From Candidatus Obscuribacteraceae bacterium (GTDB lineage Bacteria > Cyanobacteriota > Vampirovibrionia > Obscuribacterales > Obscuribacteraceae), in the NCBI GenBank assembly GCA_044225915.1, contig JBGAHZ010000028.1:24524-88523 (forward strand): DNA of 64,000 nt, given 5' to 3'. Below are positions 6,526-22,617 of this stretch, in pieces. The translations under genes and the position numbers were made by a program. Position 1 is the stretch's first letter. Each line of letters begins with the position of its first letter. Below the pieces are notes generated by a model, which did no database searches, was not told the DNA's origin, and worked only from the letters and a program-made list of their open reading frames with translations.

Positions 6526-6538
6526 GGAGAATACGAAC

Positions 6539-7873
6539 ATGTCTAACATGAACACTCAGAAGCTGGAAAGCTTGGCATCGTTTGTCGTCTCCGAAGCCAA
6601 ACGGCTCGGCGCGACGGACTGTGACGTTGCGATCTCGGAATCCGAATCCGTCGCCTGCGGCGTGCGGCTCACCGAGGTCGAAGAACTCCAGGGCGCCCAG
6701 GATCGCAGCCTGCGATTCCGTGCTCTGGTCGGCAAGAATGCAGCGACGACTTCGACGACGGACTTCCGTCGCCGGTCGCTGACCAAGATGGTGCGTGACA
6801 CCATCGCAATGGCGAAGGCTTCGGAACCCGACGAGTTCGTCGGCATGCCGGAAGCGCATCAGTTCGCCAAGGCCACCGCCGCGTCCCTCAACCTCTTCGA
6901 CGAGGGGCTCGCCAAGGTCGACGTCAACACCAAGATCGCGATCGCGGCCAAGGCGGAAGCTGCGGCTCGTGGTGCCGATCCGCGCGTCACCAACTCCGAG
7001 GGCGGCAGCTTCTCGGACAGCCGGGGCATGGTCGTCCTGGCCAACTCGCGTGGCTTCCTCGGAAGCTATGCGGCTACCCGCTGCTCGATCGGCGCCGGCA
7101 TCGTGGCGTCCGAAGACGGCAACGCCATGCAGACCGGAAGCTGGTCGGCCTCCAGCCGCACCTTCGCCGGTCTGGATTCGCCGGAATCGGTCGGTGTGGA
7201 AGCGGCTCGCCGTGCGATCCGCCACCTCGGCGCCCGCAAGGTCAAGTCGCAGGAAGTGCCGGTCGTGTTCGACCAGCTCATGGCTGCGCGTCTGCTCGGT
7301 CAGTTCGTCGGCGCCGCTCACGCGTCCCACGTGTACCGCGGCAGCTCGTTCCTCGCCGGCAAGGTCGGTGAGGTCGTCGCGGTTCCGGAGCTCGTCATCG
7401 TCGATGATGGCATGATTCCGGGCGGGCTCGGTTCGCGTCCGTTCGACGGCGAAGGTCTGCCGACCACGCGTCGCGTGCTGGTCAAGGACGGGAAGCTGCA
7501 GTGCTATCTGGTCGACTCCTACGCTGGGCGCAAGCTCGGTCTGGAACCGAACAGCGGCTCGACCTGCAACCTGTTCATCGAAGCCGGCAAGCACACCGCC
7601 GAGGAGATCATCGCCACCGTCGACAACGGTCTCTACCTGACGTCGGTCTCCGGCCCCGGCTTCAACGCCGTGACGGGTGACTACTCGATGGGTGCCTCCG
7701 GCATCTGGATCGAGAACGGCAAGCTCGCCTACCCGGTCGACGAAATCACCGTCGCCGGCAACGTCCTCGAGATGTTCAAGAACATCGAGATGATCGGCAG
7801 CGACCTGGTCTTCCGCTCGAGCACCTGCTCGCCGACCCTCAAGATCGGCAAGATGATGGTGGCGGGTTCGTAA
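6539..7873 (+). CDS. pmbA: Metalloprotease PmbA/TldE (TldD partner)
   Basis: AAGGAGA RBS before the ATG at 6539, which lies 13 nt after the tldD stop. PmbA-type N-terminus (…LESLASFVVSEAKRLGATDCDVAISESES…), length about 445 aa, and the conserved tldD-pmbA gene order. Confidence 0.8.
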   Translation: MSNMNTQKLESLASFVVSEAKRLGATDCDVAISESESVACGVRLTEVEELQGAQDRSLRFRALVGKNAATTSTTDFRRRSLTKMVRDTIAMAKASEPDEFVGMPEAHQFAKATAASLNLFDEGLAKVDVNTKIAIAAKAEAAARGADPRVTNSEGGSFSDSRGMVVLANSRGFLGSYAATRCSIGAGIVASEDGNAMQTGSWSASSRTFAGLDSPESVGVEAARRAIRHLGARKVKSQEVPVVFDQLMAARLLGQFVGAAHASHVYRGSSFLAGKVGEVVAVPELVIVDDGMIPGGLGSRPFDGEGLPTTRRVLVKDGKLQCYLVDSYAGRKLGLEPNSGSTCNLFIEAGKHTAEEIIATVDNGLYLTSVSGPGFNAVTGDYSMGASGIWIENGKLAYPVDEITVAGNVLEMFKNIEMIGSDLVFRSSTCSPTLKIGKMMVAGS

Positions 7874-8223
7874 GTCGTAGTTCGATCGAGTCAACCTGAG
7901 CTTGCAGGCTCGGTCGATTCGAAAGAACGGCAGGACAGTTTGTCAGTCTGAAACTCACGGTAGTTAACATCTGGTCTAATGGAAGCCTCGTCAGGCTTCT
8001 GTCGAGGCACGGATGCCGGAGCGTTTAGATAAAGCGAACTGAAACTTTGTAGCGGTCAGCCTCAACGGTCGACCGTTACACGAAGTGCGCAAAGCGGGCC
8101 AAAAGCCTGTTTTGCCGCACTTCGGCTTCGGTGTTAAACTATTAGATGGAATAGTATAAAAATGGAATTCGGTAATCGGAAAATTCAGGCAAATGTTCAA
8201 TCTAATAAAACCCGGAACATCCG

Positions 8224-9681
8224 TTAAATGAACGAACGGCAGACTTCATTGAAGTATTTCTGAAACAGTGCCAAATGCATTTTGAAAACACCGTTTTCTT
8301 TCATCTCGAATTTTCTGTGATTAGGATCATCAGCCATTGAAAATGTGTCAGAGTGTGACCCATGCGGGTTTCGAATAGTGACCATATTGCTGGCGGGATC
8401 AAAACCGATGATCGTGTACGCGTGTTGTGGAACCACCAATTCTTCGTATGAGCCAAGATGCGAAGCATTCCAAGTTCCGCATACGATGGGATTTTTCGAC
8501 GAAATCGCGCCGCCAATGAATGCGGATAATTCTTGAATTTCCGTGCTGTATGGACGGAGTGATTGAGCCTTGCAGCCGGTTATGCAACCCAGTCCTATAG
8601 CCAATCTCGACTCCACTCCGCTTTCTCCTTCGGCTCCTCTATTGTTTGGAAACTTCATCACTTGCGCGCACTCTATCAACGATGCCCAGAGGGCTCTGTC
8701 GTTGATGTGCCGCTCTTTCATGACTTGTTCCGTGATTTTGTATTCGGTGCCATCGCCCGGAAAGCGTACAACGTAAGTGCCGGGACCGCCAATCTTAATC
8801 ATACTCGCGAGCAGCCTCTGTCCGCGGGGCAGGTCGGCTAATGAAGCCATCGATGCCTCAAACCAACAGTTCGGATTGAAACCTTGATCGATGCCATTGG
8901 AGCCGTCCTTGGCTATGTCCGCTGTCGAGAATGGATAGGCGCCGATTCTGAGGGAGTTGTCGATTGCGAATTTGTGTCGTTTGCTCGCGACCATACTAAT
9001 TTTCGTTGAGCTCAACTCATCATCGTCGTCGTCCTCGTCTGCTTTATTGGTCGTTAATTTTGCACCGGCGGTACCGCTGGCGGTGGCAACTGCGCCGGCC
9101 TTCCAATGTGCCATGAGTCTATTGTTATAGTCGTCGATAGCGCGTTTTAACGCCAGTTTGCCGGCTGGAGTGTGCATGTTCGACTTTGCGTCAGGCGCCA
9201 AATTTGCCCAGAAATCGGCTGGCAGAGTCTCCTCCGTCAGTAACTTCGGCGGATTAGACCTGGTGGTTCCTGCTGATGCCACCGTTCGAGCTGCATCGTC
9301 TTCGAAGATCTTCTTGCACAGCGCTGCTTCTTGATTGCCGCTGAAGTTGTTAATGACGTAATAACAAAGCTGCTTGGCTCGCTCTCTTCGATTAGCCTTC
9401 ATGTTTGCCAATGCGGCATAGTAGTACAAACGCCCCGATGGTTTGCTTGACTTAATCACCGTTTCAAACGCGTCGGCAGACTCGACAAAACGCCCGGCGC
9501 CATAAAGTGCCCATGCGCTTTGCGCTGTAGGAGTTACTGCTGTTCTAGCGCCTCCGTCAGCCGCTTCCACCGAGTGCGAGGCACACAGAAGCGCTGCAGC
9601 GAGGAGTAGTGACGCAATCGGCTTGCCTGATGATGAACGGTTTTGCGGCGTACGAATGACCGAATGATTTGAATGTTTCAC
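8224..9681 (-). CDS. Secreted calpain-like cysteine protease (peptidase C2-like) with an N-terminal TPR-like region
   Basis: Signal peptide. Catalytic Cys context QGFNPNCWFEASMASLA, His context PQHAYTIIGFD and Asn context TIRNPHG resemble the calpain Cys/His/Asn triad motifs. Confidence 0.55.
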   Translation of the reverse strand: MKHSNHSVIRTPQNRSSSGKPIASLLLAAALLCASHSVEAADGGARTAVTPTAQSAWALYGAGRFVESADAFETVIKSSKPSGRLYYYAALANMKANRRERAKQLCYYVINNFSGNQEAALCKKIFEDDAARTVASAGTTRSNPPKLLTEETLPADFWANLAPDAKSNMHTPAGKLALKRAIDDYNNRLMAHWKAGAVATASGTAGAKLTTNKADEDDDDDELSSTKISMVASKRHKFAIDNSLRIGAYPFSTADIAKDGSNGIDQGFNPNCWFEASMASLADLPRGQRLLASMIKIGGPGTYVVRFPGDGTEYKITEQVMKERHINDRALWASLIECAQVMKFPNNRGAEGESGVESRLAIGLGCITGCKAQSLRPYSTEIQELSAFIGGAISSKNPIVCGTWNASHLGSYEELVVPQHAYTIIGFDPASNMVTIRNPHGSHSDTFSMADDPNHRKFEMKENGVFKMHLALFQKYFNEVCRSFI

Positions 9682-9881
9682 TGTTACTCCAGGAGCGACT
9701 TGGAGATCTATTTGACACGTATTTATTTTAATCAGTTTCTGAAACTAATACATCCGCCGCATCCCCGGAAATTAATTTTGCACAGGTAGCTGCATTCGAG
9801 TTATTTCTGGTATTCCAAACCGACAAAGTTTGCCGAAATGCAACGGTTTCTACTATCACGTTGGTTGACTAAACTAATATC

Positions 9882-11528
9882 TTACGGAAGCAATTTGCTG
9901 CGCTTTTCGAGAAGATCGCGTCGTGCGATTGCGCGCGCGTTTCCTTCGAACTTTTCGGCTTCAGTGGATCTTCCTGAGCTGCGCAGCGAGCGGCTCATGT
10001 CGACCATCGAGCTAGCAGTGAGTATGCTCATATCGCCTGTGGAACTGGCTGTACTGGCGAGTGCCCAGTAATAGACTTGAAGCGAAGTCGCGACTTTGCC
10101 CTGACTGTAGAGCATAAATCCGAGGTCATTCAGCCGCAGCGCGACTTCCAGTTTCTGGGCGGCCAGCGGAATCTTCGGCAGACTTTCGACGTATGAAAGA
10201 TCCACAGTTGAGGTGCCAGGATTTTGTTCTTCCGAAATTAGCGCGAGCAGAAGTTTCGTCTGTCGTGCCGGCCCGGAGTCGCCAATGTAGGCCTTCTCGT
10301 AAATCTCTAAAGCGCGGGCGAGAAGGGGTTTTGCCTCGTTGTAATTCCGTTGCAAGAGATAGATGGAAGCTAAGCCGTTTAAATCACGCGCAACGCTCGG
10401 ATGTTGTGCACCAAGTGAATCGATGTCTGCCGCAATCATGCGTTCGTAAAACGAAATCCGCTGTCGGTTTATATCCTCAAGCGCGGCGAAGTCGGAATAT
10501 TTTTTGTCGGTTTGTGTTCTGACTGTGTCGAAGTTGCTGTTGATGGTATTGTTGGTGGTGCTAGTATCGATATTGCGGGCGGTGGCATCGGCGGCTGCTT
10601 TGTCGGCCATTTGAATGGAAACTTTGGTGCTGAAGTTCGAAACAGCAGTACCTTTCTTTTGTTTGAGGGTGCCGAGCTGGTCTTTCAACAGTTCATTTTG
10701 AAATGCAGAGTGCAAAGTTTTGGCGTTGTAAATCGTTGAGATCAGAAGGTTGGTGTAGTCCGATAGAAGCTCTTCGATAAACGCGCTTGTGGGCTGCATA
10801 TTGGGTTGCATCACTATCGTCAATGCCGATAGATACGAAGCCTCGGCCTCTGCGATGAGTCCTTGTTTAAACTGATTGCGTCCCAGTCGATGAGTATAGT
10901 CAGCGGTCAGAAGTTTCCCTGCACCATCGGTGGTGGTGGTCGTAATTTCGATCGCCTTTGTGTAGTAATCGTTGGCTTTCTTGTAATCACCTTCGTCTTC
11001 GAAGATGTTGCCCAGCGTGACAAGTGTGGAGACTGTGCGAATGCTCTTTTCTCCATGTGCTTTCTTCAGCAGTTTGAGCGATTTTTTGTACAGCGGAATC
11101 GTTTCAACTATCTGATCTTCCATGTACAGAACTTTAGCGAGACTTTTCAGGCATACGACAACATCGTCTGGTGGTGCGGGCTTCAAGCCTTGTACATGTT
11201 TGCACGCTTGTCGAAAACAGTATTCAGCTTTCGCTAATTCTTTAGTGACGAGTAAACGTTCACCCTCTGCAAGTTCGGCTTTCCAGCTGTCAGAGAGGTT
11301 TTGCTTGACCGCGCCGGCAGGATTTGTAGGTGCGGATTGTGCGGCGGTTTGAGAAAGCGTAAGGGCGAAAAGCAGGGAACAGGTTATTGCGGTCGTTGAA
11401 ATCTGGCGTGGGCAGCCATTGCCAGGCGAGAGGAGCGTTCGAATCGCTAACCGGTTGCTCGAGGCAAACGGTCGAAAGTTAGTGAACGACCCGATAACTT
11501 TTTTCGTTAATTGATTACGAAGACGCAC
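9882..11528 (-). CDS. Secreted tetratricopeptide (TPR) repeat protein
   Basis: Multiple TPR-like 34-aa helical repeats (e.g. …LGNIFEDEGDYKKANDYYTKAIEI…) and an N-terminal hydrophobic signal. GTG start overlaps the upstream gene's stop by 1 nt (TAGTG), so the two are translationally coupled. Confidence 0.6.
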   Translation of the reverse strand: MRLRNQLTKKVIGSFTNFRPFASSNRLAIRTLLSPGNGCPRQISTTAITCSLLFALTLSQTAAQSAPTNPAGAVKQNLSDSWKAELAEGERLLVTKELAKAEYCFRQACKHVQGLKPAPPDDVVVCLKSLAKVLYMEDQIVETIPLYKKSLKLLKKAHGEKSIRTVSTLVTLGNIFEDEGDYKKANDYYTKAIEITTTTTDGAGKLLTADYTHRLGRNQFKQGLIAEAEASYLSALTIVMQPNMQPTSAFIEELLSDYTNLLISTIYNAKTLHSAFQNELLKDQLGTLKQKKGTAVSNFSTKVSIQMADKAAADATARNIDTSTTNNTINSNFDTVRTQTDKKYSDFAALEDINRQRISFYERMIAADIDSLGAQHPSVARDLNGLASIYLLQRNYNEAKPLLARALEIYEKAYIGDSGPARQTKLLLALISEEQNPGTSTVDLSYVESLPKIPLAAQKLEVALRLNDLGFMLYSQGKVATSLQVYYWALASTASSTGDMSILTASSMVDMSRSLRSSGRSTEAEKFEGNARAIARRDLLEKRSKLLP

Positions 11529-12184
11529 TATGGCTCTGCCTCCCAGGGAAGTTTGCGCTGAATTTCCACCCAGCCGTTGAGTTTATACGGAACAACGGAT
11601 CCGTTATCCGGAGCCATGGTGAAGGCTCCGTTCTGCCCTCGGTCCGGCTTCGAAGGAACCCAGTCGTGGAACATTCCATCGATTGGAGCGGTGAGGTCGC
11701 GGAATCGTCTGTAATCATCATCTTTCATGCGCTTGCGATAGTCATCACGGTCGGTTTTATCCACGTCGTGATCAACGTCGCTGCGCTTCCTGTCATCGTC
11801 TCTAAGATCTGGTCGCATGGCTGCCAGTGCGTTTAAATCATTGATATCCAGGTCTTGAAACGTGTGCATTCCAAAGTCGGTGTCGACAAAACTTTCCTGC
11901 CAGTTATGTTTCGGATTGGTGGTCGGTCTGTTGTTCGACTCTTTCTCGTCGAGTTTTCGGCGCTGTTCATCTTCGCGCTCTTCTTCTTTCTTTCGCTTCT
12001 TTTCGGCTTCGGTCCGCTTGTCATCGATGGAAAAGAAATCCGCGTTTTTAAAGTTGAAAAAATCAATCGACTCGTCATCATCAGCAAGGGCAGGCACGCA
12101 TGCGTACATGGAAGCGGTGACGAGGCACATTGCCAGGGCGGCACTCCGCTTCAACGGTTGCAAATGTGAGTGAGATTTGAACAC
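11528..12184 (-). CDS. Secreted highly charged (K/R/E/D-rich) hypothetical protein
   Basis: Signal peptide (…AALAMCLVTASMYACVPALA) followed by a low-complexity charged region. It is the first gene of a minus-strand operon running this gene, TPR gene, calpain-like gene. Confidence 0.4.
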   Translation of the reverse strand: MFKSHSHLQPLKRSAALAMCLVTASMYACVPALADDDESIDFFNFKNADFFSIDDKRTEAEKKRKKEEEREDEQRRKLDEKESNNRPTTNPKHNWQESFVDTDFGMHTFQDLDINDLNALAAMRPDLRDDDRKRSDVDHDVDKTDRDDYRKRMKDDDYRRFRDLTAPIDGMFHDWVPSKPDRGQNGAFTMAPDNGSVVPYKLNGWVEIQRKLPWEAEP

Positions 12185-12404
12185 ATGACTCCAAAGTTTG
12201 TCCCTGAATTATAGTCACTCGGGTGAAAATCGTCCTGAGCGCAGGTTTGACATGACATGGTCTTAAGTTTCATTCAATGAGTATAAGAGTCGAGTAAAAT
12301 TAGCAGCTTCAATGCTCTCAAGCACGTATTAATAGCTCCTGATTACTATACTGATCTCGCGAAACCGGCTCATATCGCGCTGGTCGAGTGATTCGACGAA
12401 ACCG

Positions 12405-13895
12405 ATGACACTCTGGACACTTGCACGTAACTTGTTTTTGGTGATGATAATCACCACGGTTTTTGGGGAGTGTTTTGTCTCGGGTGCACATGCTGCAGGG
12501 CGCGAGGCGCCTGTCCCGGATCTTCAGTTTCAGCCGGCTCAACCAACCAAGGCTTACAGCATTCGCGAGAGCGTGGATACAGCGGTCAGAAACTACCCGA
12601 CCATCAGGCAAAAGTTTTTCAAGCTGCGGGCAGCCAAAGCTAACGTTTCTCTGGCAAAGATGCAGTATTTGCCGAACTTGAACATTGATACGCAAATTTC
12701 CGGAGTAACGCCTAACCGCATTGCGAGCGTTGTCATGAATAACGTGTCCGGCTTCGACACCGTGCCGGTAGATTCCGGTCCGTCGGCCAAGCGGGCGACG
12801 TACAGTCCGGTTCTCAACAACCTGCAAGGTCTCAACTTAAACTGGCTGATGGTCGATTTCGGATTACGGAAAGCCAATGACCGGTTTGCCGACGCTGACG
12901 CAAGAACGGCACGTGCCGATATCAGTCTGACTGAACTTGATGTTGCGTTTGCAACCGCCGATTCATACTTCCACGCAGCCGCTGCGAAACAAGTAATAGT
13001 CGCTCGCCAGGCATCACTTGACCATATGGAAGCCGCCAAGCTGCGCGTGAAAACGCTCGTCGCCGAAGGGCTCAGACCCGGTGTTGATGCTGCGGATCTC
13101 GATTATGAGGTAGCGAAAGCAAAAATCAATCTTGTCAAAGCCGAGAAAGATTTCCGGCTTGCACTGGTCGATCTCGCAGAAAAAATGGGGTTGGCAACTC
13201 ACGATTTCGACATCATCTCCGATCCTATTATCCGCAGCCCCATGGAGCCGCGCGAAGATCGCCCGATCGACTTGAGTTCTCATCCGCTTGCGCGTTTTAA
13301 ATTCGCGGAAATCGAACGCTGGCGAGCGAAGCAAACAGTTCTAAACAAGGCATACAGACCGCACCTGTGGCTCAACTCATCATTGTGGGGGCGCGGCTCA
13401 GCAGACAACGCCGACAATCCGATTCGCAACAACACGGCGGGCATCATGCCTCAGGTGTTTAACTACATGGTGGGCGCGTCTTTCAGCTTTCCGATTCTGG
13501 AATACTTCCCGTTGAAAGCACAGAAGGCCATGGCGCGCAGCAACGAATTGGCTGCTCGAGCTGATTTCGATACCGCGATGTTGGTTTTGGAAAAGAAAGA
13601 CGCGAATGCAAGAGTTCTGCTCGAGCAAACTCGCAAAGTCGCAAAGCTAACTCCGGAGCTGGTCGAGGCTGCCAGAGTGAAAGAAACCAATGTTTTGAAA
13701 CGATACAGTGTCGGTTTAAACAACGTCGTTTCTCTGGCTGTCGCTGAGGAAAACTTAGCCACTGCCGATGTCGAAAACGCAGTCGCACAGATAGAAGTGT
13801 GGCGAGCGATTCTCGCGCTCGGATACGCCCAGGGAGATCTTCAAAACTTCTTTACGCTGGTGAAAATCGCGGAGGGTCAAACTAATTCCCCGTAG
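12405..13895 (+). CDS. Outer-membrane efflux factor (TolC-family OMF)
   Basis: Signal peptide plus an OEP-like N-terminal motif (…SIRESVDTAVRNYPTIRQKFFKLRAAKANVSLAKMQYLPNL…). Length about 500 aa. Immediately upstream of the RND permease. Confidence 0.7.
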   Translation: MTLWTLARNLFLVMIITTVFGECFVSGAHAAGREAPVPDLQFQPAQPTKAYSIRESVDTAVRNYPTIRQKFFKLRAAKANVSLAKMQYLPNLNIDTQISGVTPNRIASVVMNNVSGFDTVPVDSGPSAKRATYSPVLNNLQGLNLNWLMVDFGLRKANDRFADADARTARADISLTELDVAFATADSYFHAAAAKQVIVARQASLDHMEAAKLRVKTLVAEGLRPGVDAADLDYEVAKAKINLVKAEKDFRLALVDLAEKMGLATHDFDIISDPIIRSPMEPREDRPIDLSSHPLARFKFAEIERWRAKQTVLNKAYRPHLWLNSSLWGRGSADNADNPIRNNTAGIMPQVFNYMVGASFSFPILEYFPLKAQKAMARSNELAARADFDTAMLVLEKKDANARVLLEQTRKVAKLTPELVEAARVKETNVLKRYSVGLNNVVSLAVAEENLATADVENAVAQIEVWRAILALGYAQGDLQNFFTLVKIAEGQTNSP

Positions 13896-14010
13896 TGAGA
13901 CTCTTTCATAGAGCCATTCCGGCATGCTGTTGGATTAACGAAATCAATTTGGTAGTGTTCCAGAGAGTCGTCGAAAAGACCGTTCTCAAAGTGTTCGAGG
14001 AAAACCGGTA

Positions 14011-17000
14011 ATGTGGATCGTAGCCTGGGCAATGAAACGACCGATCACGATTGTGGCGGTAGTTTTGAGTCTCTTGCTGGTCTCCATTGGCGCGATCACG
14101 AGTATGAAACGGGACATCTTCCCTGATTTGAAGATTCCGGCAATCTACGTCATTCAGGGTTACGGCGGTATGTCACCGCAGCAGATCGAGGGCTACATCA
14201 CATCCAGCTATGAATTGTTCTTCCTCTACGTGCCGGGTATCGAGCACATGGAGTCGCAGTCCATTCAAAACTTGAGTCTGATCAAAGTTTTCTTTCAGTC
14301 GGATACCGACATGGCGAGTGCGATGGCCAGTATCGTTGCGATGGCTAACCGTGCGACAAGTTTGATGCCTCATGGAACATACAACCCGTTCGTTCTGCGA
14401 TTTGACGCGGGAAGTTTGCCTGTCGGGCAGTTGGTTCTCTATTCGGAAACCAAGACAGTAAAAGAGCTAGAGGATTTAGCCTATACAAGAATTCGACCCA
14501 TGCTCGCCACCGTGCCTGGTGCTGAAGCGCCGCCTCCGTTTGGCGGAAACATTCGAACTATTGTTATAAACGCTGATGCTGACAAGCTCCGCAAATACAA
14601 TATTTCCGGCGATGAAATAATTAAAGCGCTGGAAACCGGCAACCAAGTTTTGCCTTCGGGAAACGTTAGAACCGGCGACTACCTCCGAATCGCGCCTGTC
14701 AACACAGATTTGCCGGACATCCATCAACTCGATTATTTGCCGATTAGAACCGGGCACGGCCCGCAAATCTTTATTAAGGACATCGGTTCGATCGAAGACT
14801 CCGCGGATATCCTGGCTGGATATGCGCTTTTTCAGGGACGGAGAACGGTTTATATCCCAGCGGTTAAACGTTCCGACGCGTCAACGGTATCCGTTGTCGA
14901 CGCTCTTCAAGCCGCGCTGCCGCGCATGCAATCAGTACTTCCGGCTGATGTGAAAATCAGTTACGAGTTCGACCAGTCCAAGTATGTTCGCGAGGCAATT
15001 GAGAACGTTTTTCACGAAGGTCTGCTTGGCACGCTGCTTCCAGGCCTGATGATCTTGCTGTTTCTCCGAGATTTTCGAAGCACGTTGATTGTTGTTACTT
15101 CGATTCCACTGTCGCTATTGTCGGCGATTGTGGGATTATCCGTCTGCGGACAGACCTTCAACATCCAGACCCTGAGCGGACTGGCGCTATCGATCGGTAT
15201 CCTCGTGGACGAGGCGACTGTGTGCATCGAGAACATCCACAACCACCTGGGTGCCGGAGAACCTATGGCACGCGCCGTTTACAACGCTTGTGTGGAAACG
15301 ATGGTTCCTCGACTTCTGGCGATGTTGTCGGTAGTCGCTGTGTTCATTCCATCATTTTTCATGGTCGGAATCACAAGAGAATTGTTCATTCCGCTCTCAC
15401 TTGCCGTAGGTTTCGCCATGGTCGCATCCACGACATTGGCATCAACAGTGGTGCCGATTATGGCGGTTTGGATTCTCAAACATAAACATGAAGAGCCCAA
15501 ACGAGATTGGGTAGACAATCTCAAGGATGCCCTCGGCGGAGTAATTAAAGCGCTGTTGCCGATTCGTCTTGTGGTTGTCGGAGTTTATGTCACCCTCGCA
15601 GTTTCGCTTGTCGTCTTCCTCTACGACGACATAGGTAAAGAACTTTTCCCGGACAACGGCAGTAAACAGTTTCGCGTTCGAATCTCCGCACCAACAGGAA
15701 TGCGCGTAGAAGCGCTAGAGAAGCGTGTTTTAAGAACAATTCAGGAAATTAAGGACGAGGTTGGTGCCGACAACGTCGAAAAAACTTTGGGATACGCCGG
15801 TCAGCAGCCGCCGATGTTCCCTATCAGCTCCGCATTCTTATGGACGAGCGGGCCGCACCAGGCGGTGCTGGACGTCCAGCTCAAAGAAACTTGTAATGTC
15901 GAAATCTCGGCTCTGAAAGACCGTTTACGCAGTCGTCTTGCAAAAGTTTTGCCGGACACTAAGATGTCTTTTGAACCGGGGGATATGGTCAGTCAAATCA
16001 TGAACATCGGCTCTCCGACGCCGATCAAGGTTCAAGTCATGGGACCGGACATGGTGGCGAATAAACTGTTTGCCAACAAGGTGCTGGCCGAAATGAAGAA
16101 GATCAAGACGCTTCGAGACCTTAACTGGGGTCAGCCGCTCGACTATCCGTCAGTTGAAGTCGATATCGACAGAGAGTTGGCAGGGCAGTTCGGAGTCACC
16201 GCCAAGGACGTCGGTATGTCGCTGCAGCCGGCATTTTTCTCCAGCCGCTTTGTGCACCTCAGTCTCTGGCGTGATAAAAACAGCGGATTCTCGTATCAGG
16301 TCCAAGTTCAAGTTCCGCAGGATCAAATCACATCCAAGGATGACATCGCGAAGTTTCCTACGATGAACAGCGCCAGACGAGTTCAAATGCCCGAGTTTAA
16401 TGATGAACTGGAAGACCCGGATACGAACAAGTACTACCCGGATGCCAAAGATCGCCGTTCTCAGCATCCGTTGATTGGCGACGTTGCTGCTGTTAACTAT
16501 GGTGTCACGGACGGTGAATTCGATCGATACAATATGATGCGGATGGTCTCTCTGACAGCCAACATCGAGGGGCATGATCTCGGGCGAGTCGGCGACGCAG
16601 TCAGAGCAGCGGTTGCCGCCGCGGGCAAACCACCTGCTGGTGTATTCGTCGATGTGGCAGGACAGGTGCCGGTTCTCGAGGATACATTCTTCCACTTGCT
16701 GACTGGCTTGTTGCTCGCTGTCGTCGTTATCACCCTCATGTTGCTGGCATATTTCCAGGCGGCAAGAGTCGTGCTAATCGTGATGTCGACAACGCCTGCG
16801 ATTCTTTTGGGCGTTCTAACTATGCTCACGATTACGGGAACGACGTTGAACGTTCAATCATTCATGGGCGCAATCATGTCAACCGGTGTGGGAATCGCGA
16901 ACGCGATTCTGCTTATCGTGTTTGCTGAAGAAAGCCGCGCCAAGGGCATGAGCGCGGACGAGGCTGCGGTTCACGGAGCGCAACAGCGCATGCGACCGAT

Positions 17001-17217
17001 TTTGATGACATCCATCGCCATGGTGGCGGGGATGATACCGATGGCATTGTCGGCGGGGCAGAGCGCGCCATTGGGCAGAGCCGTCATTGGCGGTTTAACG
17101 ATGTCGACGTGTTCAGTGCTAACCATACTGCCTCTTGTTTATTCAATCGTGCAAGCCAAAGCTCCTGTCAAAGTCAAATCACTTCACCCCGACGATATAG
17201 AAGAGGAAGAGTCGTAA
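14011..17217 (+). CDS. RND-family efflux transporter permease (AcrB/CzcA-type, about 1070 aa)
   Basis: Twelve-TM topology with two large periplasmic loops, the typical N-terminus MWIVAWAMKRPITIVAV, and appropriate length. Confidence 0.85.
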   Translation: MWIVAWAMKRPITIVAVVLSLLLVSIGAITSMKRDIFPDLKIPAIYVIQGYGGMSPQQIEGYITSSYELFFLYVPGIEHMESQSIQNLSLIKVFFQSDTDMASAMASIVAMANRATSLMPHGTYNPFVLRFDAGSLPVGQLVLYSETKTVKELEDLAYTRIRPMLATVPGAEAPPPFGGNIRTIVINADADKLRKYNISGDEIIKALETGNQVLPSGNVRTGDYLRIAPVNTDLPDIHQLDYLPIRTGHGPQIFIKDIGSIEDSADILAGYALFQGRRTVYIPAVKRSDASTVSVVDALQAALPRMQSVLPADVKISYEFDQSKYVREAIENVFHEGLLGTLLPGLMILLFLRDFRSTLIVVTSIPLSLLSAIVGLSVCGQTFNIQTLSGLALSIGILVDEATVCIENIHNHLGAGEPMARAVYNACVETMVPRLLAMLSVVAVFIPSFFMVGITRELFIPLSLAVGFAMVASTTLASTVVPIMAVWILKHKHEEPKRDWVDNLKDALGGVIKALLPIRLVVVGVYVTLAVSLVVFLYDDIGKELFPDNGSKQFRVRISAPTGMRVEALEKRVLRTIQEIKDEVGADNVEKTLGYAGQQPPMFPISSAFLWTSGPHQAVLDVQLKETCNVEISALKDRLRSRLAKVLPDTKMSFEPGDMVSQIMNIGSPTPIKVQVMGPDMVANKLFANKVLAEMKKIKTLRDLNWGQPLDYPSVEVDIDRELAGQFGVTAKDVGMSLQPAFFSSRFVHLSLWRDKNSGFSYQVQVQVPQDQITSKDDIAKFPTMNSARRVQMPEFNDELEDPDTNKYYPDAKDRRSQHPLIGDVAAVNYGVTDGEFDRYNMMRMVSLTANIEGHDLGRVGDAVRAAVAAAGKPPAGVFVDVAGQVPVLEDTFFHLLTGLLLAVVVITLMLLAYFQAARVVLIVMSTTPAILLGVLTMLTITGTTLNVQSFMGAIMSTGVGIANAILLIVFAEESRAKGMSADEAAVHGAQQRMRPILMTSIAMVAGMIPMALSAGQSAPLGRAVIGGLTMSTCSVLTILPLVYSIVQAKAPVKVKSLHPDDIEEEES

Positions 17218-18542
17218 TGCAGAGCGATTTCGAAGTCGATAATCAACCACCACGTAAAAGCGGTCTGGCTGAAACTTTTAGTATTCGCAACATCATCTTC
17301 ACAGTGGTCATCATTGCCATCGCCGGCGGTGTGTTTTATTTCATGTGGTTGAAGCGGCAGAAACCGGTGGCGCCTGAAGTGAAGACGGATGTGATTTCCG
17401 TTGACGTTGTTCCGGTCACGAAGAAGACGTTGTTTCGCGAGGATCAATTGCCGGGTGAAATCAACGCGTATCAGGATGTTTTGATCTATCCGAAAGTGCC
17501 TGGTTTTGTTAAAGAGTTGAACGTGGACCGCGGTTCCATCGTCAAAAAAGGTCAGCTCATGGTGAAGATGTATGCGCCTGAGTACCTGGCGAAGCGTCAT
17601 GAGTTTGTTGCCAAAGTCGCGGGCGTTAAAGCCGATTTGGCTGCTGAGCAATCGAAAGTCGAAGATTTGAAAGCGGAACTGGAGAAGAAGCGCGCGAATC
17701 TGCTTGCCGATCAATCGACGTATCAGCGCGTATACTCCGCATCGCTCGTTCCCGGCGTTATTGCCGACAACGATGTCGTCCAATGGGCGCAGACGGTAAA
17801 AGCAGATCGGGAAGACATCAATGCCATCATGAAGCGCGTCAACGCTAAAGATCACGAAGTGTCCGCCAAGCGTGAGGAATTGAATGCCATGACTGAAGCG
17901 TTCGAAAGTTTTGCCGACTTCGCTTCGTACCTCGAGATCTACGCACCGTTTGACGGCTATGTAACGGAGCGAAAAATGCACGTCGGCAGTTTCGTCGGTC
18001 CGGATGGAACCGGCGCCTATCCACCGATTTGCCGTTTGAAGCAGCTCGATCTGCTCCGGATCGTCGCACCCGTTCCGGAGGATCTCGTCTCCGGTGTCAT
18101 CATGGGTTCCGAAGTCGAATTTTCTGTTTCGTCCTTTCCGGGCAAGCGGTTTAAAGGCACTGTTGCACGGTTGGCAAACAACCTCGACAAGGACACGAGA
18201 ACAATGCCTGTCGAGTTGAACTATCTAAACCCTGATTTCCAGTTGATGCCCGGCATGTTCACCAAAGTCTATTGGCCGACGCGTCGTCCCAACACAAGCT
18301 TGTTCGTTCCAATCACCGCCGTCGTGACCACACCACTAAGCACCTTCGTCTGCAAAGTCAAAGACGAGCACGTCGAGTGGGTCCAGGTCCGCAAAGGCGA
18401 AATCATGGACAAACAAGTCGAAGTCTTCGGCGACCTGAAAGAAGGCGACGTAGTCGCAGAAGAAGGCAGCGAAGAGTTAACCAACCAATCTCGCGTCACG
18501 CCTGTGCTCAAGCCCGTTAAGGTCAGCCAAAAGCTGGATTAG
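17217..18542 (+). CDS. Efflux RND periplasmic adaptor (membrane-fusion protein, HlyD-like)
   Basis: ATG overlaps the permease stop (TAATG). Single N-terminal TM, then coiled-coil and beta-barrel regions typical of membrane-fusion proteins. Confidence 0.7.
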   Translation: MQSDFEVDNQPPRKSGLAETFSIRNIIFTVVIIAIAGGVFYFMWLKRQKPVAPEVKTDVISVDVVPVTKKTLFREDQLPGEINAYQDVLIYPKVPGFVKELNVDRGSIVKKGQLMVKMYAPEYLAKRHEFVAKVAGVKADLAAEQSKVEDLKAELEKKRANLLADQSTYQRVYSASLVPGVIADNDVVQWAQTVKADREDINAIMKRVNAKDHEVSAKREELNAMTEAFESFADFASYLEIYAPFDGYVTERKMHVGSFVGPDGTGAYPPICRLKQLDLLRIVAPVPEDLVSGVIMGSEVEFSVSSFPGKRFKGTVARLANNLDKDTRTMPVELNYLNPDFQLMPGMFTKVYWPTRRPNTSLFVPITAVVTTPLSTFVCKVKDEHVEWVQVRKGEIMDKQVEVFGDLKEGDVVAEEGSEELTNQSRVTPVLKPVKVSQKLD

Positions 18543-18563
18543 TCGCCTTGATCAGGAATTGAA

Positions 18564-20099
18564 CTATTGTGAGAGGATTCGTCCGGCGCGCTGTTCGACT
18601 TCCGATGCCTGTGTGTTCTTGTCCAGTCCTCGGAGAACTAGAGCGTAGTCTTTCAAGCATGCGGCCAATAGCGGGTCTCTAGTGCCGACTGCTTTTTCGG
18701 TGCTTGCGATTGCCCATTCGTAAAACGTGCTGGCCTTATCGAGCTGACCTTGCTGGTAGTAGAGAAATGCCAGACCGTTGAGAATTTTTGCGGTTTCTAA
18801 ACTATTGGGGCCGAGCGTTTCTTGGGCGTTGCTGAGAGCTTCTCGGTAGAGTTTCGTTGCTGCAGGAATGTTGCCGAGGCCGGACTCGACGGACGCTAGA
18901 GAAGCCATTGTGTTTATGGTCAAAACGTTTTGCGAATGGTAGGTGGCCTCGTAAATGGCAAGCGCACGAGTGAGGCAGGATCTGGCTTCAGAAAAGCGTT
19001 TCTGCGCGATGTAGAGTTGCGCAAGTCCGTTGAAGTCGTTTGCTACTGACGGGTGGTTTGGACCAAGAGAGTCTGTGTCGGCTGCGATCATGCGCTGATA
19101 TTGCGCTTCTCCGAGGTGGTAGCGATTTTGTTGGAAGATGGTGTCGCTGACGACTTTGAATGCAGGTTTGAGCGCAGCGTCAGAGGAGGGCATGTGGATG
19201 CCGCGCAGCGAGACAGCTTCGTTCTCATTCGTGTCGGCGCTTCGTGCTTGTGCCAATTGTTGTTCTGATTGCTGCTGCCACTGTGATTGAACGGCGCCGG
19301 TCAGTGTTGAGCCCTGGTTGCTCGTTCCGCTGGTACTTGAAACCGCTGAATTCTGAATTCGGGTGCCACTACCGCTGGTGGCTGGAGTTTTTGCCGGCTG
19401 GCGGTCGTTGAAAATATCCTTCTGAAAATCGTCGATCAGGTTTTTATCAGAGGTGTCGCTTCCTTTGAGCAAATCACCGTAGTCGTGAGTTACGGCCTTG
19501 AGTTGTTCGGCTGCTTCGAGATTAGGCTCTTTCGATAAAATGGTGATGGCTCGTTTATAACTGTCTGTTGCCGCAGTCTTATTGCCCATCTTGCCGTGCA
19601 CCCGGCCGATTCCACGCAGAGCAAACGCCGCATCCGGACTGTATGTTCCATAATTTTTCTCGGAAATTGCCAACGCGCGATTGTAGTACGACATTGCCAG
19701 AGGATGATCTCCTGCGGCTTCTTCAATTGAGCCGAGTCCCATCAGAACTGCCGTTAGCTTGGAGCTGCCGTTCCCGAATTTCTTCTGATGTTGATTCAAC
19801 ATTTGCTGAAGAATGGTGCGCGCTTCGCCGGTGCGGTCAAGCAATGTCAGTGCTGATGCCAGTTTTAGCAGACATTTGTCCAGGTCTTCAGGATTTTTCG
19901 ATTGCTTCTTAACAAGAGCAACCGCCTGGCGATACCGTTGTTCTGCGATTGATGGCGACTGCGAGTTGAGCGCGCTATCTCCCTCTGCACATAACGCGGA
20001 CCATGAGTCAGTGGTCGCAGCACTGGCTGTGTTAGTCGCGACGCATTGTGTGAGGATGCACAGCGCAATCAGGTTTCTTTTGACAGTGGTGGTTCTCAT
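18564..20099 (-). CDS. Secreted TPR repeat protein, paralog of 9882-11528
   Basis: Signal peptide. Shares a conserved block with the other TPR protein (QRMIAADTDSLGPNHPSVANDFNGLAQLY versus YERMIAADIDSLGAQHPSVARDLNGLASIY). Confidence 0.6.
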   Translation of the reverse strand: MRTTTVKRNLIALCILTQCVATNTASAATTDSWSALCAEGDSALNSQSPSIAEQRYRQAVALVKKQSKNPEDLDKCLLKLASALTLLDRTGEARTILQQMLNQHQKKFGNGSSKLTAVLMGLGSIEEAAGDHPLAMSYYNRALAISEKNYGTYSPDAAFALRGIGRVHGKMGNKTAATDSYKRAITILSKEPNLEAAEQLKAVTHDYGDLLKGSDTSDKNLIDDFQKDIFNDRQPAKTPATSGSGTRIQNSAVSSTSGTSNQGSTLTGAVQSQWQQQSEQQLAQARSADTNENEAVSLRGIHMPSSDAALKPAFKVVSDTIFQQNRYHLGEAQYQRMIAADTDSLGPNHPSVANDFNGLAQLYIAQKRFSEARSCLTRALAIYEATYHSQNVLTINTMASLASVESGLGNIPAATKLYREALSNAQETLGPNSLETAKILNGLAFLYYQQGQLDKASTFYEWAIASTEKAVGTRDPLLAACLKDYALVLRGLDKNTQASEVEQRAGRILSQ

Positions 20100-20403
20100 T
20101 GGTCGGTCCGCATCTTTCGAGACTCTTTGGCAGTGACCATTCTAACATCTCAGCTTTGACAGAACTTTGATATTGATGCATATCGGAGTTGCTTGTTGCG
20201 TCATTGAGGTATTGACATGCGCGCCCGTAAATACGCGTGTTTCTACGAATTTCTCCTGGCTTTCTATCTGAGAAAAAGGCTTAGCTTGAGTATCTCTTGT
20301 TTATCTTTCTTGAACTAAAACTCTAACCAAAACCCACAGCCCTGGATTCTTTTTCACTTAACGACGGAAGCTTTGCTTCTGCCGTGCTTCCCTGAGGTTT
20401 TCC

Positions 20404-21834
20404 ATGCTGAGAGTTTCACGATTTCGGCTGGTGCTGCTCTTCGCTCTAGCTATCGCGATGTTCCTGCTCGTATGTGGAGATTCGCAGAACGGCAAGAACC
20501 GCAAGTCCGCGCAGCCCATCACCATCGGTGCCGGTGACAAGCGCGGCTGTCCGCCGACCAACGCCGCTACTGCAACCGTCAATCTGCCCGGCAGCGAAGC
20601 GCTCGGCGCACTGATTACGGACGTCTACGCCAAGCTCGACCCCAAGGGTGTCGGCTCCTTTACGCTCACCGATGTCGATCGCGCAATGCTGGCGCCCTGT
20701 ATCAAGGGGCGGCATGCTATCGCACTGGTGGTCGTGCGCGACAACTTCACTGCTCTCTCCGGCGGGAAAGAGCGACTCACCCTCAGTGACCTGCAAGGTT
20801 ACAAGCCCGGGGTGGCTCGCTCAAACCTGGCGGACAGCATTGACTGGCGGTTTGCTACTGCGGAAAACTTTTTGAAGAACGTCAATCGTGAGCTGTTTCC
20901 TCGGGGGACCCTGACGGAAAGCTGTGCGAAGATGCGTTCGGTCGAGCAGGTTCAGCGCGGCAACTGCTACCTGTTGTCCGGCATCGGTTCTGTTTCGGCG
21001 CAGACGCCCGACGTCATCCGTAACTGTTTCACCGATAACGGTGTGGACACCGCCCGCGGTATCAGAACCTACTCGGTTCGCTTTCCGCGTGACCGAGCCG
21101 TCGAGTATGTGGTCGAGGATTTCACCGATGCAGCCCTGCTCTACGCCGAAGTCTCCGAAGACTCGGGTACCTGGGTAGCGGTCCTCACGCGCGCCTTCGG
21201 TCAGTACATGAAAGATCATGCCCACGTCCGTATCGGACAGCGTCTGTTCTACAAGCTCGACAAACGAGTGCTGCTCGAAGACGCGACTGACCACGGTGGC
21301 ATCGATAGCGAAGGACTGCGCATGTTGACGGACCCCAAGGTCACCGAGTTGAAGCGAGTGCTCTGGGGCTTTCCGGACGAGCAGGTCAACACGCTGTTCA
21401 AAGAAATCCTTGACGGCATGCTCCCTGAAGCCAACGAGATGATCAAGACGGTTTTGACGGCGGCGCTCCTGCCGCAGGTCAAGTCAATCATCAAGTCGAT
21501 GTGCGTGCCGCGCGACGAGTCGGTCGTTCATGACCTGCTCAAACGTTCGGTCGCTGACAACAAGCTTCCAGCTACCGTGATCAAGCACGGCGGCGCTCAC
21601 GAAGCCAGCATTATCGGTTATGAACCAGGCACCAGAACCGCGGACGGCAAGCACGAATCCAGGTATGGGTTCGTCACCATCCGCGACCAGGCCGGGTTGT
21701 ACGAACCGGAAGAGAAAAATGTGACAGACGGCAAGTGGTGGAGAAACCCCGGCATGGACGGCAAGACTGTCGTCATGACCGTTGAGGAATTCACCGCCAT
21801 TTACTGTGGGTTCAACGTCGTGCTCAAGCGTTGA
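20404..21834 (+). CDS. Secreted calpain-like protein, paralog of the C2 domain of 8224-9681 (catalytic Asn position reads Asp)
   Basis: Signal peptide. QRGNCYLLSGIGSVSA aligns with the Cys motif, YSVRFP with YVVRFP, and HEASIIGYE with HAYTIIGFD. TIRDQAG replaces TIRNPHG. Divergently encoded from the TPR paralog. Confidence 0.45.
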   Translation: MLRVSRFRLVLLFALAIAMFLLVCGDSQNGKNRKSAQPITIGAGDKRGCPPTNAATATVNLPGSEALGALITDVYAKLDPKGVGSFTLTDVDRAMLAPCIKGRHAIALVVVRDNFTALSGGKERLTLSDLQGYKPGVARSNLADSIDWRFATAENFLKNVNRELFPRGTLTESCAKMRSVEQVQRGNCYLLSGIGSVSAQTPDVIRNCFTDNGVDTARGIRTYSVRFPRDRAVEYVVEDFTDAALLYAEVSEDSGTWVAVLTRAFGQYMKDHAHVRIGQRLFYKLDKRVLLEDATDHGGIDSEGLRMLTDPKVTELKRVLWGFPDEQVNTLFKEILDGMLPEANEMIKTVLTAALLPQVKSIIKSMCVPRDESVVHDLLKRSVADNKLPATVIKHGGAHEASIIGYEPGTRTADGKHESRYGFVTIRDQAGLYEPEEKNVTDGKWWRNPGMDGKTVVMTVEEFTAIYCGFNVVLKR

Positions 21835-21942: not shown

Positions 21943-22617
21943 ATGTTTATTGCAGACAGACTGGTGGGTACCAGTGGTCCGGCGCGCAACGCGCGGATCG
22001 TTCAACTGTTCGCGGATGAGATGGCACACGGACTGGCCGAGCTGAACTCGATGGGTCGGGACGGCGTCTCGATCTTCGGAACGGCGCGTCGGCGCAAGGG
22101 GCATCCGGACTACGATCAGGCTTTCCGGCTGGGCTACAAGGTGGCCAAGTCGGGTTTGATCGTGATTCAAGGTGGTGGTCCGGGCGCGATGGAAGCGTCG
22201 GCGGAAGGTGCGGTCGCGGCTGGCGGTAAGGCGGCGAGCATCTGCCTCAAGCTGCCGCACGAGGAAAAGCCGAATCCGTTCGGCTCGATCTCGGTGCAGC
22301 ACCGCTTCTTCCCGACGCGCAAGTCGATGTTCATCGAGAAGTCGGTCGGGTTCATCATCGTCAAGGGTGGGTTCGGCACGATGGACGAGTTCTTCGAAGT
22401 GCTGTGCAGCGTTCAGTGCAAGATGAGCACGCGGGTGCCCATCTACCTGATCGGCAAGAAGTTCTGGACTCCGCTGGACACGTTCGTGCGCGAGTCGCTC
22501 CTCGACGAGGGGATGATCGGCGCCGACGACGTCAACCTGTACACGATCACGGATGACGAAGACGAAGCCGTCGACGGCATCGTCTCGCACTGGAGGGCGA
22601 GTCGCGAGCAGCGTTAG
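21943..22617 (+). CDS. LOG-family protein (TIGR00730 Rossmann fold; cytokinin riboside 5'-monophosphate phosphoribohydrolase-like)
   Basis: GGGPGAMEA and KGGFGTMDEF motifs match the LOG family PGGxGTxxE signature. Length about 224 aa. Confidence 0.75.
   Translation: MFIADRLVGTSGPARNARIVQLFADEMAHGLAELNSMGRDGVSIFGTARRRKGHPDYDQAFRLGYKVAKSGLIVIQGGGPGAMEASAEGAVAAGGKAASICLKLPHEEKPNPFGSISVQHRFFPTRKSMFIEKSVGFIIVKGGFGTMDEFFEVLCSVQCKMSTRVPIYLIGKKFWTPLDTFVRESLLDEGMIGADDVNLYTITDDEDEAVDGIVSHWRASREQR

Follow-up and report, generated by a model that had tools for sequence, protein, structure and literature searches.

Among the bacterial homologues of calpains only one, the thiol protease Tpr of Porphyromonas gingivalis, has been characterised biochemically (Rawlings 2015, PMC4631099). 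According to the same survey each bacterium holds a single calpain homologue, such homologues may bear signal peptides, and they never occur together with an EF-hand domain. Within the cyanobacterial lineage, calpains that join PPC domains to the catalytic CysPc core have been described (PMC4631099; PMC9380684); the lineage treated here is not covered by the 2022 survey of cyanobacterial calpains (PMC9380684; Melainabacteria, Obscuribacter and Vampirovibrio are absent from its text), the term Melainabacteria is likewise absent from the survey of Rawlings (PMC4631099), and in the literature library searched no paper connects Obscuribacter with calpain. Here, we analyse 64,000 nucleotides (hereafter the window) from Candidatus Obscuribacteraceae bacterium, a member of the non-photosynthetic Obscuribacterales (Melainabacteria/Vampirovibrionia), which are related to cyanobacteria (GenBank assembly GCA_044225915.1, contig JBGAHZ010000028.1, positions 24,524 to 88,523), in which two genes for calpain-like cysteine proteases (C2a and C2b) each adjoin a gene for a secreted tetratricopeptide repeat (TPR) protein (TPRa and TPRb, respectively). 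A first-pass annotation of this DNA had seen in them a recurring pair, with the TPR protein acting as chaperone, inhibitor or scaffold of the protease beside it.

We regard a different arrangement as probable, namely that C2a and C2b are two exported proteases of family C2, that the TPR genes are the flanks of a conserved efflux cluster, and that the C2 genes are accessory to this cluster and found at it in the window's immediate clade only. Both proteins are bacterial non-classical calpains of a known family, and their relatives already carry a generic NCBI name ('C2 family cysteine protease' in several homologues of C2a).

As first annotated, both open reading frames, C2a (8224-9681, minus strand, 485 aa) and C2b (20404-21834, plus strand, 476 aa), are of calpain type, since each exceeds the gathering score of PF00648 (Peptidase_C2; 23.8 bits). 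C2a reaches 31.2 bits over aa 262-480 (profile positions 48-293 of 297) and C2b 25.7 bits over aa 170-278 (profile positions 40-151), i.e. over its N-terminal half only; the C-terminal half of C2b is tied to family C2 solely via its fold and via a profile-profile comparison (hhalign) with the C2a family. BLASTP finds no significant similarity between C2a and C2b, and a direct sequence search of the two against PDB chains returned no relevant match. The hhalign comparison of the two family profiles (probability 88.9%, E 2.4e-6) places Gln266, Cys272, His420 and Asn438 of C2a on Gln182, Cys188, His399 and Asp428 of C2b; thus the proposed correspondence of the Cys and His motifs is borne out, with the triads aligned and the catalytic Cys and His invariant in both families. 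In both proteins the oxyanion-hole Gln stands six residues before the nucleophile Cys and the His is present, the third triad residue being Asn438 in C2a and Asp428 in C2b, each invariant.

C2a is a genuine family C2 peptidase homologue with the canonical Gln-Cys-His-Asn set (motifs NCWFEAS, HAYTII and IRNPHG; codons 8884-8886, 8866-8868, 8422-8424 and 8368-8370). All four residues are invariant in an alignment of 20 C2a sequences (44-65% identity to the query), in which Trp273 and the N-terminal helical domain are also invariant or nearly so. At least 225 homologues were recovered, and the taxon names among the 120 listed are all Melainabacteria, Obscuribacterales or another cyanobacterial label, which assigns the window to the Obscuribacterales. 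In the AlphaFold2 model (mean pLDDT, the per-residue model confidence, of 79) most of the catalytic core (aa 247-485; 8227-8943) exceeds 90, and the 34 best Foldseek matches in the PDB are all calpain cores (E 2.9e-8 to 8e-5). The core is preceded, from the N-terminus, by a predicted signal peptide (aa 1-40), a TPR-like domain of five helices (aa 53-131; 9289-9525), and a helical, acidic and disordered linker (DEDDDDDE at aa 215). The TPR-like domain, which comprises 2.5 repeats, is delineated by family-wide conservation (Y60, F72, E73, Y87, A89 and A90 are invariant in the 20 sequences) and by the model (pLDDT >90); it gives a weak TPR_16 match in Pfam (E 0.012, below the Pfam thresholds) and weak Foldseek matches to the TPR domains of YbgF, RPAP3 and Tah1 (E 0.05-0.1). 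The nearest described parallel is that of the Naegleria TPR-CysPc calpains (PMC4631099), which like C2a place TPRs N-terminal to the calpain core; these are, however, eukaryotic proteins with canonical TPR_1/8/11 matches and, in one of two examples, a Calpain III domain, whereas the TPR-like match of C2a is sub-threshold.

C2b (motifs NCYLLSG, HEASII and IRDQAG; codons of Gln182, Cys188, His399 and Asp428 at 20947-20949, 20965-20967, 21598-21600 and 21685-21687) belongs to a small family with only 13 close homologues. Its hydrophobic N-terminus is followed by a degenerate EF-hand-like domain (aa ~60-165; 20581-20898) and by a CysPc core with a helical insertion of ~100 aa. The first-pass annotation had left it between a pseudo-protease and a variant triad. 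The former, or alternatively a non-proteolytic papain-fold enzyme of the transglutaminase or amidase type, is in our estimate improbable. It could draw on the Asp in place of Asn (Cys-His-Asp is the triad of transglutaminases), on a Cys motif that is degenerate with respect to the QGxIGDCYF of its relatives, on the Pfam match confined to the N-terminal half and on low model confidence at the nucleophile. Set against these are the four catalytic residues, which are the same in 14 of 14 sequences even though identity elsewhere is only ~42-47% (the lowest about 42%), and this conservation argues for selection on a working active site; the fold points the same way, as the top 25 Foldseek matches in the PDB are calpain cores (E 9.4e-6 to 5e-3) and no transglutaminase is among the 50 listed. 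Neither in Pfam nor among the top Foldseek matches was either protein placed in a non-peptidase family. Moreover, the replacement of Asn by Asp with retained function has been recorded in family C2, as in PalB, and Asp variants can be active (Rawlings 2015, PMC4631099); because that survey accepts Asp as a functional replacement, the Asp of C2b is compatible with C2 membership. Judged from its sequences, C2b is therefore a genuine member of family C2 with a fixed Cys-His-Asp variant triad (Asp428 in all 14), not a decaying pseudo-protease. The parallel with the PalB/Rim13-type calpains (PMC4631099), which have the same Asn to Asp change and presumably retain activity, is one of convergence at a single position rather than of close kinship, these proteins being eukaryotic, cytosolic and equipped with an MIT domain.

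The eukaryotic calpain core (CAPN1, CAPN3 and CAPN9; 1TL9, 6BKJ and 2P0R) provides the best, and the only strong, structural matches of C2a and C2b, and on these matches both are assigned the papain-like fold of two subdomains (PC1/PC2). With it they share the Pfam family, the Gln/Cys/His/Asn(Asp) arrangement and, in C2a, the NCW, HAY and RNP motifs. They differ from it in identity (10-19% only), in the size of the core (~240 aa in C2a vs ~320 aa), in the ~100-aa insertion and the Asp for Asn of C2b, in the absence of CIII/C2L or penta-EF-hand domains and in their signal peptides and predicted export (vs a cytosolic location). Neither protein has a Pfam match to Calpain_III or to an EF-hand at E<=1, the domains by which a classical calpain is recognised.

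The neighbourhoods of C2 genes in other genomes speak against a dedicated TPR partner. For C2a, one genome per GTDB species was scanned, giving 58 C2a-family loci with flanks of up to 8 kb (retrieved loci and proteins of relatives carry the labels L001-L076, P0004, P0212 and P0261-P0401). In none of the 58 was a TPRa- or TPRb-like neighbour present: no match reached 60 bits, and the best (35-47 bits) were to unrelated short TPR genes. Clustering of the flanking open reading frames recovered no conserved neighbour in these 58 loci other than tandem paralogues and generic kinase-like proteins. A second, co-directional C2a paralogue stands in tandem in 14 of them (L027, L029, L032, L033, L035, L036, L038, L042, L043, L049, L050, L054, L056 and L063), and C2a is a member of a large, order-wide and often tandemly duplicated family. 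Some genomes also hold several C2a loci (e.g., L047 and L062 on JADJQZ010000001), and these tandem and multiple genes run counter to the published generalisation of one calpain per bacterium. Beyond the window's clade, the C2a homologue nearest in sequence (P0004, 63% identity; L069/L070 7163-10716) has a divergent gene for an OmpR-type response regulator on one side and a convergent one for a PAS histidine kinase on the other, an arrangement that hints at two-component control of this homologue. Four contigs with typical Obscuribacterales C2a genes (L025, L042, L026 and L058) come from metagenome-assembled genomes labelled Planktothrix sp., Proteobacteria bacterium and Flavobacterium psychrophilum, and are probably mis-binned or mislabelled.

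C2b gives a similar picture. Its homologues at 42-43% identity (L003 and L005) have no adjacent TPR gene, such a neighbour is missing throughout the C2b loci L003-L005, and at L001 (C2b 59%) the 1 kb upstream of the gene, up to the contig end, is free of TPR genes. The arrangement of TPRb and C2b seen in the window recurs only in L007/8 (C2b 95%) and L006 (C2b 77%), and that of OMP with P218-TPRa-C2a only in L068 (C2a 66%; same sample as L006). Downstream, C2b is followed co-directionally by a LOG/TIGR00730-family gene (21943-22617, plus strand, in the window; NCBIfam match) wherever this DNA was seen (L001, L002 and L007-L009, with C2b identity down to 59%); in L071 the LOG gene stands directly beside TPRb with no C2b between them.

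These observations weigh heavily on the idea that two cognate pairs exist, each with a secreted TPR protein dedicated to the adjacent calpain-like protease. In its favour, both paralogous TPR genes do adjoin C2 genes in the window (31% identity over 490 aa, E 2e-45, which upholds the reported paralogy, as do the signal-peptide-like N-termini the reported secretion), both associations are kept in a sister species at 66-77% identity (L068, L006), and co-transcription of C2a, P218 and TPRa is possible, there being no terminator-like minus-strand site in the 200-nt gap before C2a, in a promoter/terminator scan of 7900-12500 that performed no better than shuffles. Against it stand not only the empty C2a and distant C2b neighbourhoods, but also the persistence of TPRa or TPRb without a C2 gene (L071+L074, L072, L073, L076 and the P0212 locus). 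Furthermore, the 1-nt start/stop overlap (TAG/GTG at 11528), which had been assigned to the TPR and calpain genes, in fact joins the stop of P218 to the start of TPRa; between the TPRa stop (9882) and the C2a start (9681, a GTG preceded by GGAG at 7 nt) lies an AT-rich gap of 200 nt. The second pair is divergently transcribed across a 304-nt spacer, as had been noted. Nor are the two pairs independent recurrences, as both lie at the edges of one 12-kb cluster around an RND operon. On comparative genomics the cognate-pair model appears largely refuted, and we deem it very unlikely: the TPR genes follow the efflux operon, and a role as chaperone, inhibitor or scaffold of the protease finds no support. 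C2a and C2b have no conserved partner in trans; their accessory domains are carried in cis.

What the TPR genes do accompany is a tripartite RND efflux operon. An outer-membrane factor, a permease and an adaptor adjoin one another at 12405-18542 on the plus strand: OMP, a TolC-like outer-membrane efflux protein and first gene of the operon (12405-13895; PF02321, E 1.2e-30; TIGR01844 and TIGR01845), the RND permease of the AcrB/CzcA superfamily (14011-17217; PF00873, 559.8 bits) and MFP, the periplasmic adaptor (17217-18542; PF16576; TIGR01730, 172.8 bits). On one side of the operon, on the minus strand, are P218, a secreted and highly charged protein of 218 aa missing from the first-pass annotation (11528-12184), and TPRa, a secreted TPR_12/TPR_10 protein of 548 aa (9882-11528; Pfam TPR_12, E 4.7e-31). 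On the other side, convergent with MFP, is TPRb, of the same type with 511 aa (18564-20099, minus strand; Pfam TPR_12, E 4.8e-48). Homologues of TPRb that match over nearly its full length number more than 120, and those with a taxon name are Melainabacteria/Obscuribacterales except for one labelled Oculatellaceae cyanobacterium. In every retrieved context, eight genome contexts in all, TPRb orthologues are convergent with, or a few genes away from, the same MFP-RND(-OMP) operon (L006, L007/8, L071 at 74%, L072 at 57%, L073 at 55%, L076 at 51% and the P0212 locus at 46%). The orthologues so placed range from 46 to 93% identity, and C2 genes at this place are confined to the clade of the window itself. 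A P218-like gene is divergent from OMP in L068, L074, L072, L076 and the P0212 locus, and in L068 (TPRa 74% identical), L074 (77%) and L076 (47%) it overlaps by 1 nt, as in the window, with a TPRa orthologue behind it; C2a comes after TPRa in L068 only. In L076, a DUF6882 gene comes after TPRa and an unrelated 303-aa gene before TPRb, with no C2 gene. Across seven related loci the RND protein retains 83-98% amino-acid identity and the TPR proteins diverge to 46-51%. The unit TPRb / MFP-RND-OMP / P218-TPRa, which we count as a seven-gene cluster, is thus conserved across the Obscuribacterales, and this suggests that TPRa and TPRb are dedicated periplasmic TPR accessory proteins of the RND pump.

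A direct comparison is offered by a relative that has the cluster and lacks both proteases. L071 and L074 are identical throughout an overlap of 7,248 bp (100%) and therefore represent one genome, which is collinear with the window from ~1,700 to 25,000 and whose flanking proteins are 85-95% identical. This genome encodes the pump, P218 and both TPR proteins, and lacks C2a and C2b. The DNA of C2a and its upstream spacer (window 8157-9881) is replaced by about 450 bp (L074 11564-12014) and that of C2b (window ~20340-21828) by about 100 bp (L071 6610-6713), and the intergenic DNA on either side of both gaps remains alignable (72-83% identity). No C2 pseudogene remnants were found in these empty sites, and the search for mobile-element signatures and for direct or inverted repeats around the C2 genes of the window gave only short, chance-level repeats. 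Since both TPR genes are kept without C2 genes, the TPR proteins do not need the C2 proteins; and since the TPR-efflux cluster is conserved in relatives without C2 genes, the latter are accessory insertions at its two edges.

The same comparison lends some colour to another possibility, i.e. a lineage-specific module in which, in the window's clade, the TPR-RND-TPR cluster took on two C2 proteases as co-regulated accessories, for example as processing enzymes or as cargo handled together with the periplasmic TPR proteins and the pump. It would explain the joint gain or loss of the genes (both present in the window, L007/8 and L006+L068, neither in the L071+L074 genome, which is as distant from the window as the C2-containing L006 genome, with 81% RND nucleotide identity each), as well as their clean, ORF-sized presence or absence exactly at both cluster borders. 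On the other hand, two or three lineages were sampled, such that a single ancestral branch could produce the co-variation by chance; no shared regulatory repeats or mobile-element signatures surround C2a or C2b; C2b is linked more persistently to the downstream LOG gene than to TPRb; and RND pumps are not known as exporters of folded proteins. We hold this module to be unlikely.

Several observations do weigh against accessory C2 proteases unconnected to the TPR proteins, or against parts of that reading. C2a and C2b are either present together or absent together, which is compatible with a lineage-specific link and reflects at most one or two evolutionary events. In a scan of ~0.9 Mb of DNA from other Obscuribacterales, genes of the TPRa/b family were rare, and therefore the adjoining of both paralogues to C2 genes is unlike random scatter. 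Pfam covers only the first half of C2b, and its model, of medium quality (pLDDT 71), falls below 50 at aa 181-199, around the nucleophile Cys188. The call of export, finally, comes from a crude hydropathy script (mean Kyte-Doolittle values, with the cytosolic LOG protein as control) rather than from a trained predictor. By this measure a basic n-region and then a hydrophobic h-region (mean Kyte-Doolittle 2.0-3.1, against 0.7 in the LOG control) can be recognised in each of the five non-pump proteins, followed by small-x-small sites in all except C2b, the longer h-region of which could be a membrane anchor; C2b is hence predicted to be exported or membrane-anchored.

With accessory, exported C2 proteases as the preferred reading, C2a and C2b would be Sec-exported thiol endopeptidases of papain fold, predicted to be active in the periplasm or outside the cell. 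The TPR-like domain and acidic linker of C2a may supply substrate targeting or latency, and in general the in-cis N-terminal domains (TPR-like and EF-hand-like), rather than the neighbouring genes, would act as targeting or regulatory modules. Given the degenerate state of its EF-loop, C2b probably does not depend on Ca2+. TPRa, TPRb and P218 would have their function at the RND pump or in the cell envelope, not in conjunction with the proteases, TPRa being presumably coupled in translation to P218 through their 1-nt overlap. Compared by description, Tpr of P. gingivalis is likewise a bacterial, non-classical C2 protease that has no penta-EF-hand (PEF) domain and acts outside the cytoplasm, although it belongs to a different phylum and is not reported to have an N-terminal domain of the TPR-like or EF-hand-like kind. 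The cyanobacterial PPC-CysPc calpains (PMC4631099; PMC9380684) share with the Obscuribacterales proteins the cyanobacterial lineage, an accessory domain N-terminal to CysPc and the C/H/N triad; they differ in having PPC domains and a predicted cytosolic location, where the Obscuribacterales proteins have a signal peptide and a TPR-like or EF-hand-like domain.

The N-terminal domain of C2b leads to a far larger group of proteins. A profile search with the C2b family returned 908 representatives at E<=1e-3, of which 373 at E<=1e-10; beyond ~10 close matches these are proteins of 400-1200 aa that match the N-terminal domain of C2b plus the Cys half of its core. Pfam detects Peptidase_C2 at 31-67 bits in nine of ten distant relatives scanned, several of which have EF-hand_6 or EF-hand_1 above cut-off ~100 residues upstream of the core, with LysM also present in some. 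Their Cys motif is the calpain consensus QGxIGDCYF, their protease domains match the C2a family (24-30% identity, E 1e-15 to 1e-21), and within the motif H[AE]YS...RNPWG of the wider family Asn occurs 69 times and Asp 3 times, sporadically; the C-terminal halves of the distant relatives do not align to the C2b profile with hmmalign. A loop was taken as canonical if it matched the 12-residue pattern D-x-[DNS]-x-[DNS]-G-x-[ILV]-x-x-x-[ED] together with a profile match. The distant relatives have canonical loops (e.g., DANGDGFLTRDE, DSNGNGYITSQE and DRDHDGYIAADE), and in P0263, P0268 and P0261 these coincide with above-cut-off EF-hand matches. The corresponding loop of C2b, DPKGVGSFTLTD (aa 79-90; 20638-20673, plus strand), departs from the pattern, having Lys at ligand position 3 and Val at position 5; the C2b N-terminal domain has no Pfam EF-hand match, 3 of 6 N-terminal domains of the C2b family give sub-threshold matches, and the modelled domain has weak Foldseek matches to EF-hand proteins. 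We thus see C2b, as far as profiles and motifs can tell, as a small, divergent and degenerate offshoot of a much larger, undescribed EF-hand + CysPc family. Just one EF-hand-C2 cluster bears a taxon name (Obscuribacterales), and the remaining ones are likely bacterial in origin.

Ten genes were counted in the region from 8.2 to 22.6 kb, the named ones being those given above. The order OMP-RND-MFP of the efflux operon is unusual. The longest-ORF start of MFP (17109) is probably too far upstream; the gene is likely to begin with the ATG at 17217, in an overlap with the RND stop codon (TAATG, 17215-17219). The spacer between MFP and TPRb is variable: it holds no gene in the window, two unannotated genes in L006 (4116-5703), and, in L071 (8548-10778; L074 275-2505), a gene for a 326-aa protein together with one for an Old-Yellow-Enzyme-type oxidoreductase. 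P218 combines low-complexity stretches rich in Lys, Glu, Arg and Asp with a conserved motif, W..SF.DTDF; neither Pfam nor NCBIfam nor PADLOC matches it, though it is kept beside OMP in at least 5 genomes. No NCBIfam model matches C2a or C2b either. A defence-system reading was dropped, as PADLOC gave no defence match for the C2 proteins or P218; on TPRa and TPRb it gave a generic TPR match only. The G+C content falls sharply at ~8000, from 0.635 (6001-8000) to ~0.50 (8001-20000), and the lower-GC block spans the entire TPR-efflux-TPR cluster plus the C2 genes.

The partnership of TPR protein and calpain, as first written, is not real, and studies of TPR chaperones for secreted calpains should not be founded on it. 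The Obscuribacterales instead hold an expanded radiation of predicted exported calpain-type peptidases, with two unrelated copies within 14 kb and hundreds of EF-hand-CysPc relatives. It is conceivable, though we give it little credence, that the pump and the periplasmic TPR proteins together constitute an envelope module for which the C2 proteases, acquired at the two cluster borders in the window's clade, serve optionally as processing enzymes or clients, and that the EF-hand-CysPc proteins are Ca2+-regulated bacterial calpains. If the former were true, the protease-linked envelope module would be a new kind of RND/TPR system; if the EF-hand-CysPc proteins are indeed bacterial and bind Ca2+, they would bear on the origin of calpain Ca2+ regulation. 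Independently of this, the TPR-efflux-TPR cluster may represent a pump served by its own periplasmic TPR accessory proteins. That conserved cluster and the EF-hand-CysPc family offer the most useful leads; neither formed part of the original claim.

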